Origin: Escherichia coli
GTDB lineage: Bacteria; Pseudomonadota; Gammaproteobacteria; Enterobacterales; Enterobacteriaceae
Assembly: GCF_003019035.1 (NCBI RefSeq)
Contig: NZ_CP027447.1
Length of the DNA: 64,000 nucleotides
Direction: 5' to 3' (one strand)
Shown here: positions 31,351 to 43,337 of the stretch, piece by piece
Position numbering within the stretch: the first letter of the stretch is position 1
Layout of the letters: the number at the start of each line of letters is the position of its first letter
Notes under the pieces: generated by a model
Seen by the model: only the letters and a program-made list of their open reading frames with translations
Databases searched by the model: none
Told to the model about the DNA's origin: nothing
Translations under genes and position numbers: made by a program

Positions 31351-33024
31351 TCAGGAGAGATATTCCGCCACCGGACCAAGCGCCAGGGCAGGGATAAAGG
31401 TCAGTGCGCCAACCAGCAACACGGTGCCGATTAACAGGCCAACAAACAGCGGGCCGTGCGTTGGCAATGTGCCGGAGCTGGCGGGTTGGCTCTTTTTACT
31501 CACCAGCGAACCGGCAATTGCCATCACCGGGATAATCACCCCGAAGCGCCCGACAAACATGCACAACGCCAGTAAACAGTTCCAGAATGGAGAGTTGGCG
31601 CTTAATCCGGCAAAGGCGCTGCCGTTGTTGTTAGCGGCGGATGACACGGCGTACAGCACTTCGCTAAAACCATGCGGGCCAGGGTTGAGCATGGCGCTAC
31701 GTCCGGCGTCGGTCATCATTGCCAGCGCCGCGCCCATCAGCACCAGCGTCGGGGTGACCAGAATCGCCAGTGCAGTCAGTTTCATCTCGCGTACGTCGAT
31801 TTTTTTACCCAGATATTCCGGTGTACGACCAATCATCAGCCCGGCAATAAACACCGCCAGCAGGACAAACAGCATCATGCCGTAAAGGCCGGAACCGACG
31901 CCGCCGAATACCACTTCACCAATTTGCATCAACCACATCGGCACCATGCCACCAAGAGCGGTAAACGAATCATGCATCGCAATCACCGCGCCGCAGGAAG
32001 CCGCCGTAGTCACGACCGCAAACAGGCTACTGACCAGCACGCCGAAACGGCTCTCTTTACCTTCCATATTGATGCTGCTGTCCGCGCCGAGCGCCAGCAG
32101 ATGAGGATTACCCTGAACTTCTGCCCACATCACTACGCCTACGCAGATGACAAAAATCACCGACATCGCCCACAGCAACATGCGCCCCTGGCGACGATCG
32201 CCCGCCACTTCACCAAAGGCAAAGCACAGCGCTGTTGGGATCAAGAAAATCGCCAGCATTTGCACGAAGTTGGTCAGTGCGGTTGGGTTTTCAAACGGAT
32301 GCGACGAGTTGGCATTAAAGAAGCCACCGCCGTTAGTACCGAGCATCTTGATCGCTTCCTGAGAAGCTACTGGCCCCATTGGTAACAGCTGTTGCGCTCC
32401 TTCAATGGTCGTCACAGCCTGATAAGGCTGAAAGTTTTGCAGTGCACCTTGTTGAATAAAAAACAGTGCGATCAACAATGCCACAGGGGCTAACACCCAT
32501 AACGTGATGCGTAGCAGATCGACCCAGGCATTACCGAGCGTGCTCATGCTCTGGCGGGTAAACGCACGGATGAGGGCAAAAATCACCGCAATCCCGCTGG
32601 CGGCAGAAAGAAAGTTTTGCACCGTTAAGCCCGCCATCTGGCTGAAATAGCTCAACGTGGTTTCACCGCTATAAGATTGCCAGTTGGTATTCGTGACAAA
32701 GCTGACGGCGGTATTGAGCGCCAGATCCCACGACAGCCCCGGCAACTGCTGTGGATTAAGCGGCAAATAGTGCTGACCGAGCAACATAAAAAACAGCACC
32801 GCCAGCCCCAGCATATTCAGGCCAAGAATGGCTGAGAGATACTGCTTCCAGTTCATCTCGCGGTCAGAGACGCCAAGCGCGCTAAAGAGTACGCGTTCAA
32901 CGCCCGTCGTACCAGGAAGAGGAATATCATTAATCAGCCGCGCCAGCCCGCTGCCTAAAGGACGTGCCAGCACCATTAACACCAGTAAAAACGTGGCGAT
33001 CAGTAAGAACCCTTGCGCAGCCAT
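31351..33024 (-). CDS. kdpA: K+-transporting ATPase subunit A
   Basis: 557 aa from [16 protein letters not shown]; track ORF begins at an upstream ATG, trimmed. Confidence 0.9.
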
Positions 33025-33101
33025 CAGAACGCCTCCGCATTGATCAGGGCATAAACCAGATAACCCAGTAATAAAAACACCAGCAACACGCCTGCACTCA
33101 C
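33024..33101 (-). CDS. kdpF: kdpF-like small hydrophobic peptide, 25 codons, GTG start
   Basis: Own translation (V/M)[29 protein letters not shown] 6 nt upstream of GTG; stop overlaps the kdpA start. Confidence 0.5.
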
Positions 33102-33173
33102 AGTGCACCTCCAGTGGCCGAAAAGTGATATCGGAAGGGTAGAATTCTGGCTGCAAAGATTTCGCAAAAATCT

Positions 33174-33203
33174 GCGGGCGGGGTGTAAAAAAAGTATAAA
33201 AAT
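33174..33203 (-). promoter_or_regulatory. KdpE operator of the kdpFABC promoter
   Basis: Minus strand reads CATTTTTATACTTTTTTTACACCCCGCCCG, matching the KdpE-protected site as I recall it. Confidence 0.65.
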
Positions 33204-33413
33204 GGCAAAAGCCATGATTTAACTGATGGTTAGTATTAATTTAACTTTTGTGTAACTTAATTACAGTGTGAATGTAAATAAACCATCAATAAGCAAAAAT
33301 AAGTGGTCGGATGAGTAGTAAAATTACACAAAAGGCGGTACTATTTTCATCAGATAAACAAATTCATTTTTCCGGTGCCATTCACCGGGTAGATACAACA
33401 GGGGGAGAAAAGT

Positions 33414-33620
33414 ATGGAACTTTACAGAGAATATCCTGCATGGCTTATCTTTTTACGCCGTACTTATGCGGTTGCAGCGGGCGTTCTGGCGCTGCCTTTC
33501 ATGCTTTTCTGGAAAGACCGCGCCCGCTTTTACAGCTACCTGCACCGCGTCTGGTCGAAAACCAGCGAGAAACCGGTGTGGATGGATCAGGCCGAAAAGG
33601 CAACTGGTGATTTTTACTGA
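33414..33620 (+). CDS. ybfA: DUF2517 small protein
   Basis: 68 aa [20 protein letters not shown]... Confidence 0.8.
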
Positions 33621-33642
33621 TTGCTGAGTTCTGAATACATTG

Positions 33643-33675
33643 AAAACCGCCAGCGGAAACGCTGGCGGTTTTTTT
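33643..33675 (+). terminator. ybfA terminator
   Basis: AAAACCGCCAGCG-GAAA-CGCTGGCGGTTTTTTT. Confidence 0.7.
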
Positions 33676-33863
33676 GTATCAGGAAGATGTTCAGAGGAAT
33701 ATTTAGACACCGTTATACCAATCGAAACATATATTCATAAAACATATATAAATATTTTCCTAATTGTTTCTATCTGACGGATATCTCACTTAAGGCTTTC
33801 TTATAAATCTGTAGGGTTTCGCCTGTCAGCAGACAAATAACCCGATAAAACAAGGATGAGCAG

Positions 33864-36800
33864 ATGAGCGGAAAACCGGCGGCGCGTCAGGGCGACATGA
33901 CGCAGTATGGCGGTAGCATTGTTCAGGGTTCAGCCGGGGTACGTATTGGTGCTCCCACCGGCGTGGCCTGTTCGGTGTGCCCCGGCGGGGTGACGTCCGG
34001 CCATCCGGTCAATCCGCTGCTCGGTGCGAAGGTCCTTCCCGGCGAAACCGACCTTGCCCTGCCCGGCCCGCTGCCGTTCATCCTCTCCCGCACCTACAGC
34101 AGTTACCGGACAAAAACGCCCGCGCCGGTGGGGAGCCTCGGCCCCGGCTGGAAAATGCCCGCGGATATCCGCTTACAGCTGCGCGATAACACACTGATAC
34201 TCAGTGATAACGGCGGCAGGAGCCTGTATTTTGAGCACCTGTTTCCCGGTGAGGACGGTTACAGCCGCAGCGAGTCACTCTGGCTGGTGCGCGGCGGCGT
34301 GGCGAAACTGGATGAAGGTCACCGGCTGGCCGCACTCTGGCAGGCGCTGCCGGAAGAGCTTCGCCTGAGTCCGCATCGTTATCTGGCGACGAACAGTCCG
34401 CAGGGGCCGTGGTGGGTACTCGGCTGGTGTGAGCAGGTGCCGGAGGCGGATGAGGTGCTGCCCGCGCCGCTGCCGCCGTACCGGGTACTGACCGGGCTGG
34501 TGGACCGCTTCGGGCGCACACAGACGTTTCACCGTGAGGCTGGCGGTGAATTCAGCGGCGAAATCACCGGCGTGACGGATGGTGCCGGGCGTCACTTCCG
34601 GCTGGTACTGACCACGCAGGCGCTGCGGGCAGAAGAGGCCCGGCAGCAGGCCATTTCCGGCGGGACGGAACCGTCCGCTTTTCCTGATACCCTGCCGGAC
34701 TACACGGAATATGGCCGGGACAACGGCATCCGCCTGTCCGCCGTGTGGCTGACGCACGACCCGGAATATCCGGACAACCTGCCAGCCGCGCCGCTGGTAC
34801 GCTATGGCTGGACGCCACGCGGCGAACTGGCGGCGGTGTATGACCGCAGCGGCACACAGGTGCGCAGCTTTACTTACGATGATAAATACCGGGGCCGGAT
34901 GGTGGCGCACCGTCACACGGGCCGGCCGGAAATCCGTTACCGTTACGACAGCGACGGGCGGGTGACAGAACAGCTAAACCCGGCAGGCTTAAGCTACACG
35001 TATCAGTATGAGAAAGACCGCATCACCATCACCGACAGCCTGGACCGCCGTGAAGTCCTGCACACGCAGGGCGAAGGCGGGCTGAAGCGGGTGGTGAAAA
35101 AGGAACACGCGGACGGCAGCGTCACGCAGAGTCAGTTTGACGCGGTGGGCAGGCTTAAGGCACAGACGGATGCCGCAGGCCGGACGACTGAGTACAGCCC
35201 GGATGTGGTGACGGGACTCATCACGCGCATCACCACGCCGGATGGCAGGGCATCGGCGTTTTACTATAACCACCACAGCCAGTTAACGTCAGCCACCTGG
35301 CCTGACGGGCTGGAAATACGCCGGGAATATGATGAATCCGGCCGTCTGATTCAGGAAACCGCCCCTGACGGCGATATCACCCGCTACCGTTATGATAATC
35401 CACACAGTGACTTCCCCTGCGCAACGGAGGATGCCACCGGCAGCCGGAAAACCATGACGTGGAGCCGTTACGGTCAGTTGCTGACCTTCACCGACTGTTC
35501 CGGCTACCAGACCCGTTATGACCATGACCGCTTCGGGCAGATGACGGCGGTGCACCGCGAGGAAGGCCTGAGCCAGTGCCGCGCATACGACAGCCGTGGA
35601 CAGTTAATTGCGGTGAAAGACACGCAGGGCCATGAAACGCGGTATGAATACAACGCCGCCGGTGACCTGACCGCCGTCATTGCCCCGGACGGCAGCAGAA
35701 ACGGGGCACAGTACGATGCGTGGGGAAAGGCCGTCCGTACCACGCAGGGCGGGCTGACCCGCAGTATGGAATACGATGCTGCAGGACGGGTCATCCGCCT
35801 GACAAACGAAAACGGCAGCCACACCACCTTCCGTTACGATGTACTCGACCGGCTGATACAGGAAACCGGCTTTGACGGCCGCACACAGCGTTACCACCAC
35901 GACCTGACCGGCAAACTTATCCGCAGCGAGGATGAGGGGCTGGTCACCCACTGGCACTATGACGAAGCAGACCGCCTCACGCAGCGCACCGTGAATGGCG
36001 AAACCGCAGAGCGGTGGCAGTATGACGAACGCGGCTGGCTGACAGGCATCAGCCATCTCAGCGAAGGGCACCGGGTGACGGTGCATTACAGGTATGATGA
36101 GAAAGGCCGCCTGACCGGTGAGCGCCAGACGGTGCATCACCCGCAGACGGAAGCACTGCTCTGGCAGCATGAAACCAGACATGCGTACAATGCGCAGGGG
36201 CTGGCGAACCGCTGTATACCGGACAGCCTGCCCGCCGTGGAATGGCTGACTTATGGCAGTGGTTACCTGGCAGGGATGAAGCTGGGTGACTCGCCCCTGG
36301 TGGAGTACACCCGCGACCGCCTGCACCGGGAAACGCTGCGCAGCTTCGGCCGTTATGAACTCACCACCGCTTATACCCCTGCCGGGCAGTTACAGAGCCA
36401 GCACCTGAACAGCCTGCAGTATGACCGCGATTACACCTGGAACGACAACGGCGAACTCATTCGCATCAGCAGCCCGCGCCAGACCCGGAGTTACAGCTAC
36501 AGCGACTCCGGCAGGCTGACCGGCGTTCACACCACCGCAGCGAACCTGGATATCCGCATCCCGTATGCCACGGACCCGGCAGGTAACCGCCTGCCCGACC
36601 CGGAGCTGCACCCGGACAGCACCCTCAGCATGTGGCCGGATAACCGTATCGCCCGTGACGCGCACTATCTTTACCGGTATGACCGTCACGGCAGGCTGAC
36701 GGAGAAAACCGACCTCATCCCGGAAGGGGTTATCCGCACGGATGATGAGCGGACTCACCGGTACCATTACGACAGCCGGCACCGGCTGGTGCACTACACG

Positions 36801-38063
36801 CGGACACAATATGCAGAGCCGCTGGTCGAAAGTCGCTATCTTTACGACCCGCTGGGCCGCAGGGTGGCAAAACGGGTGTGGCGGCGTGAACGGGACCTGA
36901 CGGGCTGGATGTCGCTGTCACGGAAACCGGAAGTGACCTGGTACGGCTGGGACGGCGACCGGCTGACCACGATACAGAACGACAGAACCCGCATCCAGAC
37001 GATTTATCAGCCGGGGAGCTTCACGCCACTCATCAGGGTCGAAACTGCCACCGGTGAGCTGGCGAAAACGCAGCGCCGCAGCCTGGCGGATGCGCTTCAG
37101 CAGTCCGGCGGCGAAAACGGTGGCAGTGTGGTGTTCCCGCCGGTGCTGGTGCAGATGCTCGACCGGCTGGAAAGTGAAATCCTGGCTGACCGGGTGAGTG
37201 AGGAAAGCCGCCGCTGGCTGGCATCGTGCGGCCTGACGGTGGCGCAGATGCAAAACCAGATGGACCCGGTGTACACACCGGCGCGAAAAATCCACCTGTA
37301 CCACTGCGACCATCGCGGCCTGCCGCTGGCGCTTGTCAGCACGGAAGGGGCAACAGAATGGTGCGCAGAATACGATGAGTGGGGCAACCTGCTGAATGAA
37401 GAGAACCCGCACCAGCTGCAGCAGCTCATCCGCCTGCCGGGTCAGCAGTATGATGAGGAGTCCGGCCTGTATTACAACCGCCACCGCTATTATGACCCGC
37501 TGCAGGGGCGGTATATCACTCAGGATCCTATTGGGCTGAAGGGGGGATGGAATTTTTATCAGTATCCGTTGAATCCGGTTCAGTATATAGATTCAATGGG
37601 ACTGGCATCAAAATATGGACACTTAAATAATGGCGGATATGGAGCGAGACCCAACAAACCGCCTACGCCCGATCCAAGTAAATTGCCAGACATAGCGAAA
37701 CAATTAAGACTGCCATATCCTATTGACCAGGCCAGTAGTGCGCCTAATGTTTTCAAAACATTCTTCAGAGCATTAAGCCCTTACGACTACACACTGTATT
37801 GCAGGAAGTGGGTAAAACCAAATCTGACTTGTACGCCACAGGATGATCCCCAGTATCCAGGGATGGATACAAAGACAGCAAGTGATTACCTGCCACAGAC
37901 AAATTGGCCAACAACTCAATTACCACCAGGATATACTTGTGCAGAACCCTATTTATTCCCAGACATTAATAAACCCGATGGGCCAGCAACAGCAGGGATA
38001 GATGATTTGGGTGAAATTTTAGCTAAAATGAAACAGAGAACATCGAGAGGAATAAGAAAATGA
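33864..38063 (+). CDS. rhsC: Rhs-family polymorphic toxin (N-terminal PAAR-like region, YD-repeat shell, DPIGL core end, ~175-aa variable C-terminal tip)
   Basis: 1399 aa; PAARQGD motif at residues 5-11; GC-rich repeat core; DPIGL at 37523-37537; sharp GC drop after it; located after ybfA as rhsC is in K-12. Confidence 0.9.
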
Positions 38064-38629
38064 AAAGAATTTTGTTCTTTTTGCTGATGATATTTGTTAG
38101 TTTTGGTGTTATAGCTGATTGCGAAACACAAGCTAAAGATCAAGATTGCTTTACCATTTTCACTAAGGGTACTATTTTTTCCGCGTTTCCTGTCTTAAAT
38201 AATAAAACCATATGGAGATGGTATCAGAATGAGGACATAGGTGAGTATTATTGGCAAACAGAACTTGGTATATGTAAAAATAACAAATTCACACCAAGCG
38301 GGGCGAGACTCTTAATTCGCGTCGGATCACTACGCCTTAATGAAAATCATGCAACCAAAGGAACGTTGCAGGAGTTGCTAAATACAGCAGAAAAAACGGC
38401 GTTTCTCGGCGATCGGTTTAGAAGTTATATAAGAGCGGGTATCTATCAAAAAAAGAGCAGTGATCCAGCTCAGTTGTTGGCAGTCCTTGATAATTCAATC
38501 ATGGTTAAATATTTTAAAGATGAGAAGCCAACTTATGCTCGAATGACAGCACATCTCCCGAACAAAGATGAGTCTTACGAATGTTTAACAAAAGTACAGC
38601 ATGAACTGCTTCGTAGTGAAGAAAAATAA
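38060..38629 (+). CDS. predicted cognate immunity protein of the Rhs tip (signal-peptide bearing)
   Basis: 189 aa; start overlaps the rhs stop (ATGA); N-terminal [19 protein letters not shown] hydrophobic signal; AT-rich like the toxin tip. Confidence 0.55.
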
Positions 38630-38797
38630 AATCTCTTCCTGAGAAAATAAATTAACTATTCGAAAAAATATGTTCTTAATGGGTATCCAGGTACACCAGA
38701 AGGTCGATTTGGAAAAATGGATTCCGATGGTAAGAATATCATATATTCTGAATGTAATGTTTTACCCACAACTTTTGAGATTCGATAGGTGTAGAGC

Positions 38798-39100
38798 ATG
38801 AGAAACTCACTAATATTACTTATTATGATATTGTTTACAATATCACACTCAGTATTTGGAAAAGAAAATTCAGTGGAAATTTTAGTAAATAGTCGTGAAA
38901 TGGCTTTGGAATTATCATATGTTTACATTAAATATGTATACGGGAAAGAAAAAGCAGAATTTCAGAAACCATATAGTATTACAGATGACAATAATTGTTG
39001 GAAAATCGAGGGAAAACAACCGAAGACGTTAGGAGGAAATTTTACAATACTAATAGCGAAAAAAGATGGGCAAGTGTTGAATGTAATACACACAAAATAA
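38798..39100 (+). CDS. small secreted protein, likely orphan immunity protein
   Basis: 100 aa with signal peptide MRNSLILLIMILFTISHSVFG; AT-rich; lies directly after a start-less toxin-tip-like reading frame (38651-38788). Confidence 0.45.
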   Translation: MRNSLILLIMILFTISHSVFGKENSVEILVNSREMALELSYVYIKYVYGKEKAEFQKPYSITDDNNCWKIEGKQPKTLGGNFTILIAKKDGQVLNVIHTK

Positions 39101-39279
39101 TCCACTGTACAGTCGATTCAAATATTTTACCAAGGTGTGTTTTGTAACAATTTTGTGTACAATATGACTCTACATATCGACGAAAAAACCACTTGATTTG
39201 ACAGGAACACATTCAAAAAAATTTCTTTATTCATTTCAGGAGCGATTTTCATCTGTTACTTGAAGTATCTGTGAGATTA

Positions 39280-39645
39280 AGTGACTCCCCCTAACGTCGT
39301 ACTAAATAGTAATTACTGTCCATACCGGGAGCAGTATTCGGCGCTCCCCACATGCAGCAGAATAACCGCATCAGCGAAGATGTATTGTATTTTTACTATC
39401 ACAATGTGTACGGACGGTTTATGGAAAAGAATGAAAATTAGATACGCGATGGGGCGGCAGGTTACACGGTTATCACTACGATAGCCAATACTGGCTGGTG
39501 CATTACCGCCGTGAACAATAGGACGCCGTACTGCTGGAAATTTCTTACCTTTATGACTCCCCGCGCCGCCGTATTGGGAAACGGGAAGCAATCAAGATGA
39601 GGCTGATATAATGTGCGGAATGCCTGAGTATTTTTAGAATAGGGG
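39280..39645 (+). pseudogene. decayed fragment of a divergent Rhs core
   Basis: GC-rich island in an AT-rich stretch; frames read YHYDSQYWLVHYRREQ* and LYDSPRRRIGKRE, resembling the core segment [12 protein letters not shown]...[12 protein letters not shown] of the intact rhs, with stops and frameshifts. Confidence 0.5.
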
Positions 39646-39651
39646 GGTAAT

Positions 39652-40053
39652 ATGTTTGATAGAATATATCTTGGTGATCGAGCAATAAAAAAAATTGAAT
39701 TTTATTTATGGACTAAACAAATTAGAATTCAGGTTAATTTAATCTCAAGGATAGCCTATGGTACAACAGAATGGAATTTTTATGATAATGAAGACTTAGA
39801 AGATGGTTATTTGGTATTTTCAGATGTTAGTTTCTTCAATATAACTCCTAATGGCTCTATTCCTGATGATTATATAATTTCAATAATTACAGATAATGTC
39901 AATGTTGAATATTTTGAATCAACTATAGTTGCAGTTGGACAAATTCCAAATACAAATTCTGGAGACATTGATAATATTGGTGAGTGTCAAATTTTCATCA
40001 GGTATAAACACAGCTGGATTGAGAATAAATTCAAAGAAAAAATAATTGAATAA
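39652..40053 (+). CDS. hypothetical cytoplasmic protein, possible orphan immunity protein
   Basis: 133 aa; GGGGGG Shine-Dalgarno; very AT-rich; sits immediately after the decayed Rhs fragment. Confidence 0.45.
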   Translation: MFDRIYLGDRAIKKIEFYLWTKQIRIQVNLISRIAYGTTEWNFYDNEDLEDGYLVFSDVSFFNITPNGSIPDDYIISIITDNVNVEYFESTIVAVGQIPNTNSGDIDNIGECQIFIRYKHSWIENKFKEKIIE

Positions 40054-40145
40054 CCATGTTATGTATAGACATTTTAGATGGAACGAACCAGAGGAAGGCA
40101 TGCCTCCGACTTGGGTTATATGGGCACGGAGTTTTAGTGTAGTGA

Positions 40146-40400
40146 ACTCAACGACGCAAACCGAATAACCTGCCGCTGGCGCTTATCAGCACGGAAGGGG
40201 CAACAGAATGGTGCGCAGAATACGATGAATGGGGCAACCTGCTGAATGAAGAGAACCCGCACCAGCTGCAGCAGCTCATCCGCCTGCCGGGTCAGCAGTA
40301 TGATGAGGAGTCCGGCCTGTATTACAACCGCCACCGCTATTATGACCCGCTGCAGGGGCCAGGGAAAGATCACGTAACGCTGCTTTTTTGTACTAAATAA
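40146..40400 (+). pseudogene. start-less orphan Rhs core-end fragment with alternative 13-aa tip
   Basis: 40170-40358 is nearly identical to 37319-37507 of the intact rhs ([63 protein letters not shown]), then diverges to [13 protein letters not shown]; in-frame stop at 40143 and no start codon. Confidence 0.7.
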
Positions 40401-40503
40401 TTCGCATTTTATGTTTAAAAATTGAGATATTCCTCATTACCTAAAGCTGTTTTTCATTGCTTATACATGATCAAATACTCCTTACATAATTAAGGAGAAC
40501 AAA

Positions 40504-41352
40504 ATGGAACTTAAAAAATTGATGGAGCATATTTCTATTATCCCAGATTACAGACAAGCCTGGAAAGTGGAACATAAATTGTCTGATATTCTACTGTTGA
40601 CTATTTGTGACGTTATTTCTGGTGCAGAAGGTTGGGAAGATATAGAGGATTTTGGGGAAACACATCTCGATTTTTTAAAACAATATGGTGATTTTGAAAA
40701 TGGTATTCCTGTTCACGATACCATTGCCAGAGTTGTATCCTGTATCAGTCCTGCAAAATTTCACGAGTGCTTTATTAACTGGATGCGTGACTGCCATTCT
40801 TCAGATGATAAAGACGTCATTGCAATTGATGGAAAAACGCTCCGGCACTCTTATGACAAGAGTCGCCGCAAGGGAGCGATTCATGTCATTAGTGCGTTCT
40901 CAACAATGCACAGTCTGGTCATCGGACAGATCAAGACGGATGAGAAATCCAATGAGATCACAGCTATCCCGGAACTTCTTAACATGCTGAATATTAAAGG
41001 AAAAATCATCACAACTGATGCGATGGGTTGCCAGAAAGATATTGCAGAGAAGATACAAAAACAGGGCGGTGATTATTTATTCGCTGTAAAAGGAAACCAG
41101 GGGCGGCTAAATAAAGCCTTCGAGGAAAAATTTCCGCTGAAAGAATTAAATAATCCAGAGCATGGCAGTTACGCAATGAGTGAAAAGAGTCACGGCAGAG
41201 AAGAAATCCGTCTTCATATTGTTTGCGATGTCCCTGATGAACTTATTGATTTCACGTTTGAATGGAAAGGGCAGCCATGGACAGAAAATATCTGGCGTCA
41301 GTCCTTGCGGGGAGCGTGCTTTCGTAATTTTGCCCTGCTACAACAGGATTAA
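40504..41352 (+). mobile_element. ybfD: H-repeat-associated (ISAs1-family) transposase gene, internally deleted derivative (ybfD-like)
   Basis: 282-aa [35 protein letters not shown]... running into an out-of-frame tail; a 16-codon frame (41277-41327, [16 protein letters not shown]) that I recall as the C-terminus of full-length H-repeat proteins lies in another frame. Confidence 0.7.
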
Positions 41353-41412
41353 CTTCACAAACATCATTTGCCAACGTCTACACTTACTCCTGTTAATATC
41401 TCAGGAGCAGTA

Positions 41413-41922
41413 ATGAATCAGCAACGATTTGATGAAAGCACTCTAATCCGTATCTTCGCGCTTTATGAGTTACATCGACTGAAAGAACATGGCTTAACGC
41501 GCGGGGCACTCAACGATTATCACAGCCGCTATAAACTCGTCTTTCTGGCCCATTCCCAGTCCGAGTACCGCAAACTTGGCCCGTTTGTGGCTGATATTCA
41601 CCAGTGGCAAAATCTGGATGACTATTACAACCAGTACCGCCAACGCGTAATTGTTTTGCTTTCTCACCCTGCCAACCGGCGTGATCATACTAACGTTTTG
41701 ATGCACGTTCAGGGTTATTTTCGCCCTCATATTGATTCCACAGAACGCCAGCAGCTGGCTGCGCTTATCGACAGTTATCGCCGTGGCGAGCAACCACTTC
41801 TTGCGCCGCTGATGCGTATCAAACACTATATGGCGCTTTATCCTGACGCCTGGCTTTCAGTGCAGCGTTATTTCGAACTTTGGCCGTGTGTGATTAACTT
41901 GCGCCATTCAGGAGTTTTATGA
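41413..41922 (+). CDS. ybgA: DUF1722 protein co-transcribed with photolyase
   Basis: 169 aa from MNQQRFDESTLIRIF; AGGAG Shine-Dalgarno; stop overlaps the phr start. Confidence 0.85.
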   Translation: MNQQRFDESTLIRIFALYELHRLKEHGLTRGALNDYHSRYKLVFLAHSQSEYRKLGPFVADIHQWQNLDDYYNQYRQRVIVLLSHPANRRDHTNVLMHVQGYFRPHIDSTERQQLAALIDSYRRGEQPLLAPLMRIKHYMALYPDAWLSVQRYFELWPCVINLRHSGVL

Positions 41923-43337
41923 CTACCCATCTGGTCTGGTTTCGCCAGGATTTACGTCAGCACGATAATCTCGCGCTGGCTGCCGCCTGCCGCAATTCGT
42001 CTGCGCGCGTGCTGGCGTTGTATATCGCTACACCACGCCAGTGGGCGGCGCATAACATGTCGCCGCGTCAGGCTGAACTTATCAATGCTCAACTGAATGG
42101 GCTACAAATCGCGCTGGCGGAAAAAGGCATTCCTTTGCTGTTTCATGAAGTGGATGACTTTGCCGCCAGCGTCGAAATAGTTAAACAGGTGTGCGCGGAA
42201 AATCGTGTTACCCATCTGTTTTATAACTATCAGTATGAGGTGAATGAGCGGGCGCGGGATGTGCAGGCTGAGAGGGCGCTGCGTAACGTGGTGTGTGAAG
42301 GATTTGACGACGGCGTGATCCTGCCGCCGGGGGCGGTGATGACTGGCAATCATGAGATGTACAAAGTCTTTACGCCATTTAAAAACGCCTGGCTTAAACG
42401 GCTGCGAGAAGGGATGTCGGAGTGCGTCGCTGCGCCAAAAGTACGTAGTAGCGGATCGATAGATCCCGCGCCATCCATTACGCTGAATTATCCTCGTCAG
42501 CCTTTCGATACTGCGCATTTCCCGGTGGAAGAGAAAGCGGCGATTGCGCAATTACGCCAGTTTTGCCAGAACGGTGCCGGAGAGTATGAGCAACAGCGAG
42601 ATTTCCCTGCGGTAGAAGGCACCAGCCGTTTGTCCGCCAGCCTGGCAACGGGCGGGTTATCGCCTCGCCAGTGTTTGCATCGCCTGTTGGCGGAACAGCC
42701 GCAGGCGCTGGACGGTGGGGCCGGTAGTATCTGGCTTAATGAGCTGATCTGGCGCGAGTTTTACCGTCATCTGATAACGTATTACCCCTCGCTGTGTAAA
42801 CATCGTCCGTTTATTGTCTGGACCGACCGCGTGCAGTGGCAGAGCAATTCCGCGCATTTAAAGGCCTGGCAGGAAGGCAAAACGGGATACCCGATTGTTG
42901 ATGCTGCCATGCGTCAGCTTAACAGCACTGGCTGGATGCATAACCGGCTACGGATGATTACAGCCAGTTTTTTGGTGAAAGATTTATTGATCGACTGGCG
43001 CGAAGGTGAGCGATATTTCATGTCGCAGCTGATTGATGGTGATTTGGCAGCCAATAACGGTGGCTGGCAGTGGGCCGCTTCAACCGGAACCGATGCAGCG
43101 CCGTATTTTCGTATTTTTAACCCGACAACCCAGGGCGAGAAATTTGACCGCGAAGGCGAGTTTATCCGCCAGTGGCTACCGGAACTGCGCGATGTGCCAG
43201 GGAAAGTGGTGCATGAGCCGTGGAAGTGGGCGCAGAAAGCAGGTGTGACGCTGGATTATCCGCAACCGATAGTTGATCACAAAGAGGCAAGGCTGCGAAC
43301 GCTGGCAGCGTACGAAGAAGCGAGGAAAGGAGCCTGA
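41919..43337 (+). CDS. phr: deoxyribodipyrimidine photolyase
   Basis: 472 aa; photolyase N-terminal and FAD-binding domains (WREFY, GWMHNRLRM motifs). Confidence 0.95.
   Translation: MTTHLVWFRQDLRQHDNLALAAACRNSSARVLALYIATPRQWAAHNMSPRQAELINAQLNGLQIALAEKGIPLLFHEVDDFAASVEIVKQVCAENRVTHLFYNYQYEVNERARDVQAERALRNVVCEGFDDGVILPPGAVMTGNHEMYKVFTPFKNAWLKRLREGMSECVAAPKVRSSGSIDPAPSITLNYPRQPFDTAHFPVEEKAAIAQLRQFCQNGAGEYEQQRDFPAVEGTSRLSASLATGGLSPRQCLHRLLAEQPQALDGGAGSIWLNELIWREFYRHLITYYPSLCKHRPFIVWTDRVQWQSNSAHLKAWQEGKTGYPIVDAAMRQLNSTGWMHNRLRMITASFLVKDLLIDWREGERYFMSQLIDGDLAANNGGWQWAASTGTDAAPYFRIFNPTTQGEKFDREGEFIRQWLPELRDVPGKVVHEPWKWAQKAGVTLDYPQPIVDHKEARLRTLAAYEEARKGA

Follow-up and report, generated by a model that had tools for sequence, protein, structure and literature searches.

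The open reading frame at 40146-40400 of the window (the 64,000-nucleotide stretch of Escherichia coli contig NZ_CP027447.1 that was analysed as a whole) consists of a start-less piece of an Rhs core end fused to the left end of an insertion sequence (IS), the H-repeat ISEc1. This piece is probably, with a likelihood of about 85%, what remains on the left side of an orphan rhs toxin module which was split by transposition of the H-repeat. The interval had been described in an initial annotation as an orphan core-end repeat ending in a 13-residue alternative tip and abutting the H-repeat. The genes, the core pieces, the shared block and the IS parts located below are on the + strand of the window.

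The rhsC locus of the window

The locus is E. coli rhsC, with the gene order kdpA-kdpF-ybfA-rhs-...-ybfD-ybgA-phr. The main rhs gene is an intact reading frame of 1399 aa (33864-38063), recognized from the list of open reading frames, the locus order, the blastn comparison with K-12 and a Pfam RHS match (PF03527, 9e-12). According to blastn, positions 33000-37601 are 95.4% identical to K-12 rhsC, while 36558-38671, that is, the 3' ~1.5 kb of the main gene and the next gene, are 97.3% identical to K-12 ybfO and ybfC; K-12's own rhsC tip and ybfB are absent from the window in the same comparison. The main gene therefore looks like what is expected of a productive tip swap between main gene and orphan, or else K-12 gained a tip in front. 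In SCU-301, the closest genome (L001, 2568-6764), the main rhs gene is frameshifted, whereas that of the window is intact.

The main gene is followed by a putative immunity gene of the YbfC type for the main tip (38060-38629, 189 aa), which is 97% identical in nucleotides to K-12 ybfC and has no Pfam hit, and then by an orphan immunity gene of the NTF2 fold (Imm-NTF2-2, 38798-39100; Pfam PF15631, 2e-20), which is also the name given by PGAP in SCU-301. Just upstream of the latter, 38672-38788 reads by eye as the 3' remnant of a toxin tip, ending in ...GYPGTPEGRFGKMDSDGKNIIYSECNVLPTTFEIR and a stop.

Further downstream, 39580-40168 is a block shared with the rhsA and rhsB arrays of other strains, as seen from its homology to the rhsB locus of strain D8 (L009) and the rhsA locus of the O55:H7 strain RM12579 (L010). 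It comprises the terminal ~58 nt of a tip (39580-39637) from a toxin, homologous to the ends of the full rhs genes in L009 and L010, a DUF6258 gene (39652-40053; Pfam DUF6258, 1.4e-24) and a 115-nt spacer (40054-40168), also homologous to both. The 39101-39579 region, between the NTF2 gene and this block, has no homology to K-12, L009 or L010; it is unannotated, and YD-repeat-like peptide remnants can be made out in it by eye.

The orphan core-end fragment

A repeat search of the window reveals a 191-nt direct repeat of 99% identity, with one copy within the main core (37319-37509) and the other directly behind the spacer (40169-40359), at a spacing of 2850. Such a repeat is far beyond chance, since the sole other direct repeat in 33000-42000 is a single 42-nt pair at 71%. 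The MAFFT alignment shows that 189 of the 191 nt are identical, the two mismatches (repeat positions 17 and 61) being both G>A. The near-identical, start-less core repeat that had been reported is thus confirmed, with coordinates right to within 1-2 nt; the alignment that had been proposed as a check, 40170-40358 against 37319-37507, covers this repeat of 99% identity, and the much lower value that had been named as counter-evidence is not seen.

The second copy is an orphan fragment which ends after ...YYDPLQG. It had been taken for the last ~190 bp of the core; it is indeed a copy of the core end, but it stops ten codons short of it. These last ten codons, through which the main gene runs on (37510-37539, placed by sequence and alignment), include the DPxGL boundary motif; Rhs proteins share little beyond this motif, where the variable C-terminal region sets in abruptly (PMC3150448).

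The translation of 40146-40400 shows that the frame of the fragment opens right behind a TGA at 40143-40145, and the listing of reading frames contains no ORF of at least 40 aa that starts with ATG, GTG or TTG in this frame. Its homology to the Rhs core is also seen with Pfam (PF03527, 2.8e-7, over the cut-off of the family). A scan for promoters and terminators near the fragment returns weak consensus matches only. In strain SCU-301, PGAP annotates exactly the interval corresponding to 40146-40400 as a pseudogene, [quoted passage not shown], followed by ybfD, an incomplete ISAs1 family transposase. The fragment is a non-coding pseudogene piece without function as a gene, and its pseudogene status is already known from the RefSeq annotation as an Rhs pseudogene. 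The last core base before the IS in SCU-301 (L001, 9060) is G instead of C, giving CAGGGGG followed by CAGGG.

The fragment resembles the orphan rhs-CT/rhsI tips (K-12 ybfO-ybfC, yibJ-yibG and ylbH, Salmonella STM0292; Poole et al. 2011, PMC3150448; Koskiniemi et al. 2014, PMC3967940) in that it is a start-less, 5'-truncated core end, nearly identical to the main core, which lies downstream of the main rhs gene, points the same way and can recombine with the main core. Unlike these modules, it has no PxxxxDPxGL motif and no variable toxin domain, its frame running 13 codons into IS DNA before a stop; no cognate immunity gene lies directly downstream, where only the remnant of the IS transposase and ybgA are found. 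Recombination would therefore give a dead Rhs and not a new toxin. The homology is also shorter, 191 nt in the window compared to 522 nt at 95% between main and orphan copies in Salmonella, for which recombination has been shown experimentally (PMC3967940).

The supposed tip is the end of an H-repeat

Comparison with H-repeat copies places the beginning of the element at 40360, inside the interval 40146-40400 and not after the "tip", so that the H-repeat does not merely abut the reported feature. H-repeats adjoin the Rhs elements of E. coli on their right side (yhhI, ydcC and ybfD/ybfL/ybfQ in K-12), and were reportedly described by Hill's group in 1993.

The 13 residues that had been read as an alternative tip are encoded by the last core base and the first 41 nt of the IS, its left inverted repeat. 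As seen from the translation and from other H-repeat left ends, 40360-40400 is the left-end part of the IS read in the Rhs frame, up to a TAA stop at 40398-40400. Indeed, K-12 H-rptC1 and H-rptC2 start with CAGGGAAAGATCACGTAACGCT(A/G)CTTTTTTGTACTAAATAATTCG, which is the sequence of the window from 40360 on. The same left end, identical or nearly so, is present at unrelated flanks, in K-12 C1 and C2, at the yafV locus of BL21 and in five E. whittamii contigs; the H-repeats of K-12 RhsB and RhsE have the same left end with a variant interior. Since the sequence from 40360 onward equals H-repeat left ends at non-Rhs sites, the "tip" belongs to the IS. The fragment has no alternative tip: what was read as one is the ISEc1 left inverted repeat in the Rhs frame.

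The left flank of K-12 H-rptC1 was compared with the window as a possible deeper truncation of this array; its last ~40 nt before the IS do not align. Neither the RhsB nor the RhsE H-repeat of K-12 shows a junction between core and IS, their left flanks being non-core DNA. A match at the BL21 yafV locus that starts 8 nt upstream of the IS was considered as a possible core fragment and discarded as a gapped, chance-like match (CAGGGG followed by CAGGG).

The element itself is a defective H-repeat (H-rpt/ISEc1, ISAs1 family) of 978 bp instead of 1291 (40360-41337), as judged from the K-12 H-rptC1, C2, C3, RhsB and RhsE copies and from the PGAP name, "ISAs1 family transposase ybfD". Its terminal repeats, IRL CAGGGAAAGATCACG (40360-40374) and IRR CGTAATTTTGCCCTG (41323-41337), located by comparison with other copies, begin with CAGGG, are complementary at 12 of 15 positions and have the same ends as the 1291-bp copies of K-12. 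The 1291-bp element encodes an intact DDE transposase of 378 aa; the window has a truncated, ybfD-like ORF of 282 aa (40504-41352), with DDE_Tnp_1_assoc (5.6e-33) and part of DDE_Tnp_1 (2.2e-18).

The K-12 ybfD copy is the same element as that of the window, next to ybgA, with the same CAGGG... inverted repeats. The internal deletion of the window IS (GAATGGAAAGG joined to GCAGCCATGG) and its right flank are common to the ybfD copy of K-12 and BL21, which lacks the first ~22 nt and lies in tandem behind another H-repeat. The arrangements differ: K-12 has three tandem defective H-repeats whose left flank is non-core DNA downstream of ybfC, while the window has a single, apparently hybrid copy, whose left end is complete and adjoins the Rhs core end directly. 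Sliding-window identity between the window IS and nine other copies gives a mosaic pattern, in which no crossover could be located.

Intact orphans in other strains

The uninterrupted form of the orphan was searched for with a synthetic query, made of the orphan left flank and core end joined to the next 61 nt of the main gene, and was found in 68 genomes. The comparison across strains that had been suggested therefore does yield genomes in which this orphan has kept a full tip and is followed by an immunity gene. Positions 39580-40359 are 99.6% identical to L009 and 98.6% identical to L010, in both cases directly behind a full rhs gene. Both have the DUF6258 gene, the spacer and the left boundary of the window (...AACCGAATAAC joined to CTGCCGCTGG). 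The homology ends exactly at 40359: D8 and O55:H7 continue through the core end into a tip. The D8 orphan is identical to that of the window over all 191 nt, and goes on with DPIGL, a toxin tip of the Tlde1-type family and then Imm57; the O55:H7 orphan has a yibJ-like tip, followed by yibG.

The reciprocal half and a probable target duplication

A second query consisted of the IS right end joined to CTGCAGGGGC and the rest of the core end. The IS right end followed by CTGCAGGGGC and GGTATATC... is found as one continuous match in ~100 genomes. In strain FDAARGOS_497 (L155), the junction reads ...CGTAATCTTTCCCTG joined to CTGCAGGGGCGGTATATCACTCAGGATCC... (also given as ...CGTAATCTTTCCCTG joined to CTGCAGGGGCGGTATATCACTCAGGATCCGATTGGGCTGAAGGGG...), and is followed by a tip with a Tlde1 domain (PF10908, 1e-7) and by Imm57 (PF15596, 1.4e-44). 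The first residues of this tip are nearly the same as those of the D8 tip.

The ten nucleotides before the IS in the window, CTGCAGGGGC (40350-40359), would be the left copy of a 10-bp target-site duplication, as the same 10-mer stands directly behind the H-repeat right end in L155, where it runs on as GGTATATCAC... Its presence both to the left of IRL in the window and to the right of IRR in L155 is the 10-nt overlap expected of a target-site duplication. The single insertion is reconstructed from two different types of genome: in the 5,426-genome collection, a single IS copy with the two halves on either side is not found, the matches being in several pieces.

The IS copy of the window has no target duplication around it, its left flank being CTGCAGGGGC and its right flank CTACAACAGG. 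Among the other full H-repeat copies examined, none has one either, save an H-repeat inserted in a yncI-like gene (L064, 421-1730), which is surrounded by an intact 10-bp duplication, GCGTTAAACA, an independent case showing that H-repeats make duplications of this length. The K-12 copy found at the left flank of L064 has a different right flank.

It is improbable that the truncation results from an adjacent deletion promoted by the IS, in which an H-repeat already present on the right of the array would have removed DNA leftwards to 40359 by intramolecular transposition. This mechanism would account for the precise IS end, the lack of a target duplication at the window copy, the many different junctions between Rhs and IRL, and the fact that the reach of the truncation varies (40359 in the window, 40242 in BL21) while the left boundary of the orphan is common. 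In an adjacent deletion, however, the removed DNA is lost and no reciprocal product is formed, whereas ~100 genomes carry IRR joined to CTGCAGGGGC with the core end, the Tlde1 tip and Imm57; the overlap is moreover 10 nt long, as expected of a target duplication, and the BL21 junction, which involves a different H-repeat variant (of the GATCATCAGAAGTTCAC type), is a separate event.

A proposed history

Splitting of an orphan by transposition is thus the preferred reading, and it agrees with the earlier suggestion of truncation by the H-repeat followed by a deletion, which is supported by the intact orphans and by the reciprocal half found in other genomes. The order of the events is what we infer from these forms. 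The ancestor would have been an orphan of the D8 type, with the DUF6258 gene, the 115-nt spacer, ~220 nt of core end through DPIGL, the Tlde1-type toxin and Imm57. An H-repeat would have transposed into the core end of this orphan, after ...LQG and ten codons before its end, with duplication of CTGCAGGGGC, thereby cutting off the last core codons, the toxin and the immunity gene from the left part.

In the simplest scenario, the inserted IS then recombined with an older, internally deleted H-repeat beside ybgA (ybfD), which would have deleted the right half and separated it from the left one. One hybrid copy would remain, with a full left end and with the internal deletion and right flank of ybfD. 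That the window IS is such a hybrid is suggested by the occurrence of the matching right CTGCAGGGGC in other genomes.

The array of BL21 and the left boundary of its orphan are those of the window, but its IS junction differs: it lies at 40242 instead of 40359, 117 nt apart, and involves another H-repeat variant (GATCATCAGAAGTTCAC type), in the form ...GGCAACCTGC joined to CAGGGAAAGATCATCAG... Since the variant differs, the BL21 junction is an independent event at the same fragment. In BL21(RP) (L008, 4428-9323), the main rhsC gene is missing and phoE/proBA adjoin a 90-bp RHS remnant; the orphan core fragment is 74 nt only, followed by a full ISEc1 and a tandem ybfD copy.

Recombination with the main gene

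The only activity of the fragment is as a stretch of 191 nt that is homologous to the main core and directly oriented to it. RecA-type recombination across the repeat would delete 2850 bp, with the main toxin tip and three immunity genes, and leave a toxin-less Rhs. Such a form exists in nature: the main core of strain 2012C-4502 passes directly into the junction and the IS, and the tip, the ybfC-type, the NTF2 and the DUF6258 genes are gone. The same fusion is present in two metagenome contigs (L123 and L139). In all three, repeat position 17 is main-like and position 61 is orphan-like. This pattern is compatible with a crossover between the two positions, for which it is weak evidence; an A at position 61 is common in other cores.

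In L123 (514-10397), the fused core and a full-length H-repeat are followed by a second rhs gene, which is 78% identical. Complete genomes related to the window strain have the H-repeat of this contig at a vgrG-rhs locus, where its left flank is different. The contig may thus be chimeric, misassembled through the IS, or may reflect a real rearrangement.

The junction between core and IS is present in 286 genomes and the left boundary of the orphan in 298. [quoted passage not shown] This order of events is unlikely, as the fused form is found in 1 of 5,426 complete genomes compared to ~285 that have the orphan form, the tip family and the immunity gene of the right half (Tlde1-type, Imm57) are those of the D8 orphan, whose 191 nt are those of the window, and the fused strain is closely related to the window lineage at the rhsC locus.

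The initial annotation saw in such repeats substrates for recombination that swaps tips onto the main gene. The natural recombinants bear out the first part of this idea; the second does not apply here, because the orphan lacks the last ten core codons, with DPxGL, and has no toxin to donate, so that recombination cannot swap in a tip. The fragment is still a recombination substrate, but a dead end, which yields a truncated, toxin-less Rhs and the loss of immunity genes. For it to be a working orphan module, whose short C-terminus would be swapped onto the main Rhs purposely, as a switch-off allele or a decoy, is highly improbable. The 13 residues come from the terminus of the IS, whose DNA is conserved at non-Rhs sites, and DPxGL, the toxin domain and a downstream immunity gene are all missing; recombination onto the main gene does happen in nature, but the recombinant is rare, and PGAP calls the fragment a pseudogene.

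A possible target preference of the H-repeat

A second subfamily of Rhs cores has its own orphan core-end fragment, ~75% identical to the core end of the window. In strain 13E0725 it belongs to the rhsE locus, and in two other strains it is found at other loci. This fragment is intact in L012 (3034-3609), and two H-repeat junctions are seen in it: the IS left end is joined after ...DPIG in L011 (3034-3152), and after ...GQG in L005 (4977-5076). The latter junction, CAGGGAC followed by CAGGGAAAG, falls at the same codon as that of the window, CAGGGGC followed by CAGGGAAAG.

One scan each of a collection of species genomes and of a metagenome collection gave 48 distinct H-repeat left flanks (L013-L154). 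GGG occurs within the last 10 nt of 17 of these 48 flanks, compared to 8.5% of the control windows taken from them (binomial p 2e-7), and CAGG within the last 10 nt of 8 of them, compared to 4.1% of controls (p 6e-4); the test was post hoc, being chosen after the pattern was seen, and the flanks are not phylogenetically independent. The right flanks show no enrichment of a mirror-image, CCCTG-like motif. Partial tandem copies of the IS tip are present before the real left end in some contigs, CAGGGAAAGATC three times in L069 and once in L083, and CAGGGAA in L097.

It is conceivable, though rather doubtful, that the H-repeat prefers to join its left end to G-rich, CAGGG-like sequences akin to its own tip, the conserved LQG/GQG codons (CAG GGN) of Rhs core ends then being a recurrent hot spot. 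A literature search on the target preference of ISAs1 elements returned nothing relevant.

Implications

It would be wrong to annotate the ORF at 40146-40400 as a short Rhs tip, since it joins a core fragment to the end of an IS. The feature is ordinary, and its importance beyond correct annotation is slight. The locus would nevertheless serve as a worked example of the decay of an Rhs array, in which an IS splits an orphan and recombination between IS copies scatters the halves. It also illustrates that a leftover core repeat can delete an active toxin together with immunity genes. If the target preference were true, it would help to explain the old association between Rhs elements and H-repeats in mechanistic terms: the IS would be a recurrent disarmer of Rhs toxins, and also a portable right-hand homology arm, moving orphan arrays among the rhsA, rhsB and rhsC loci.
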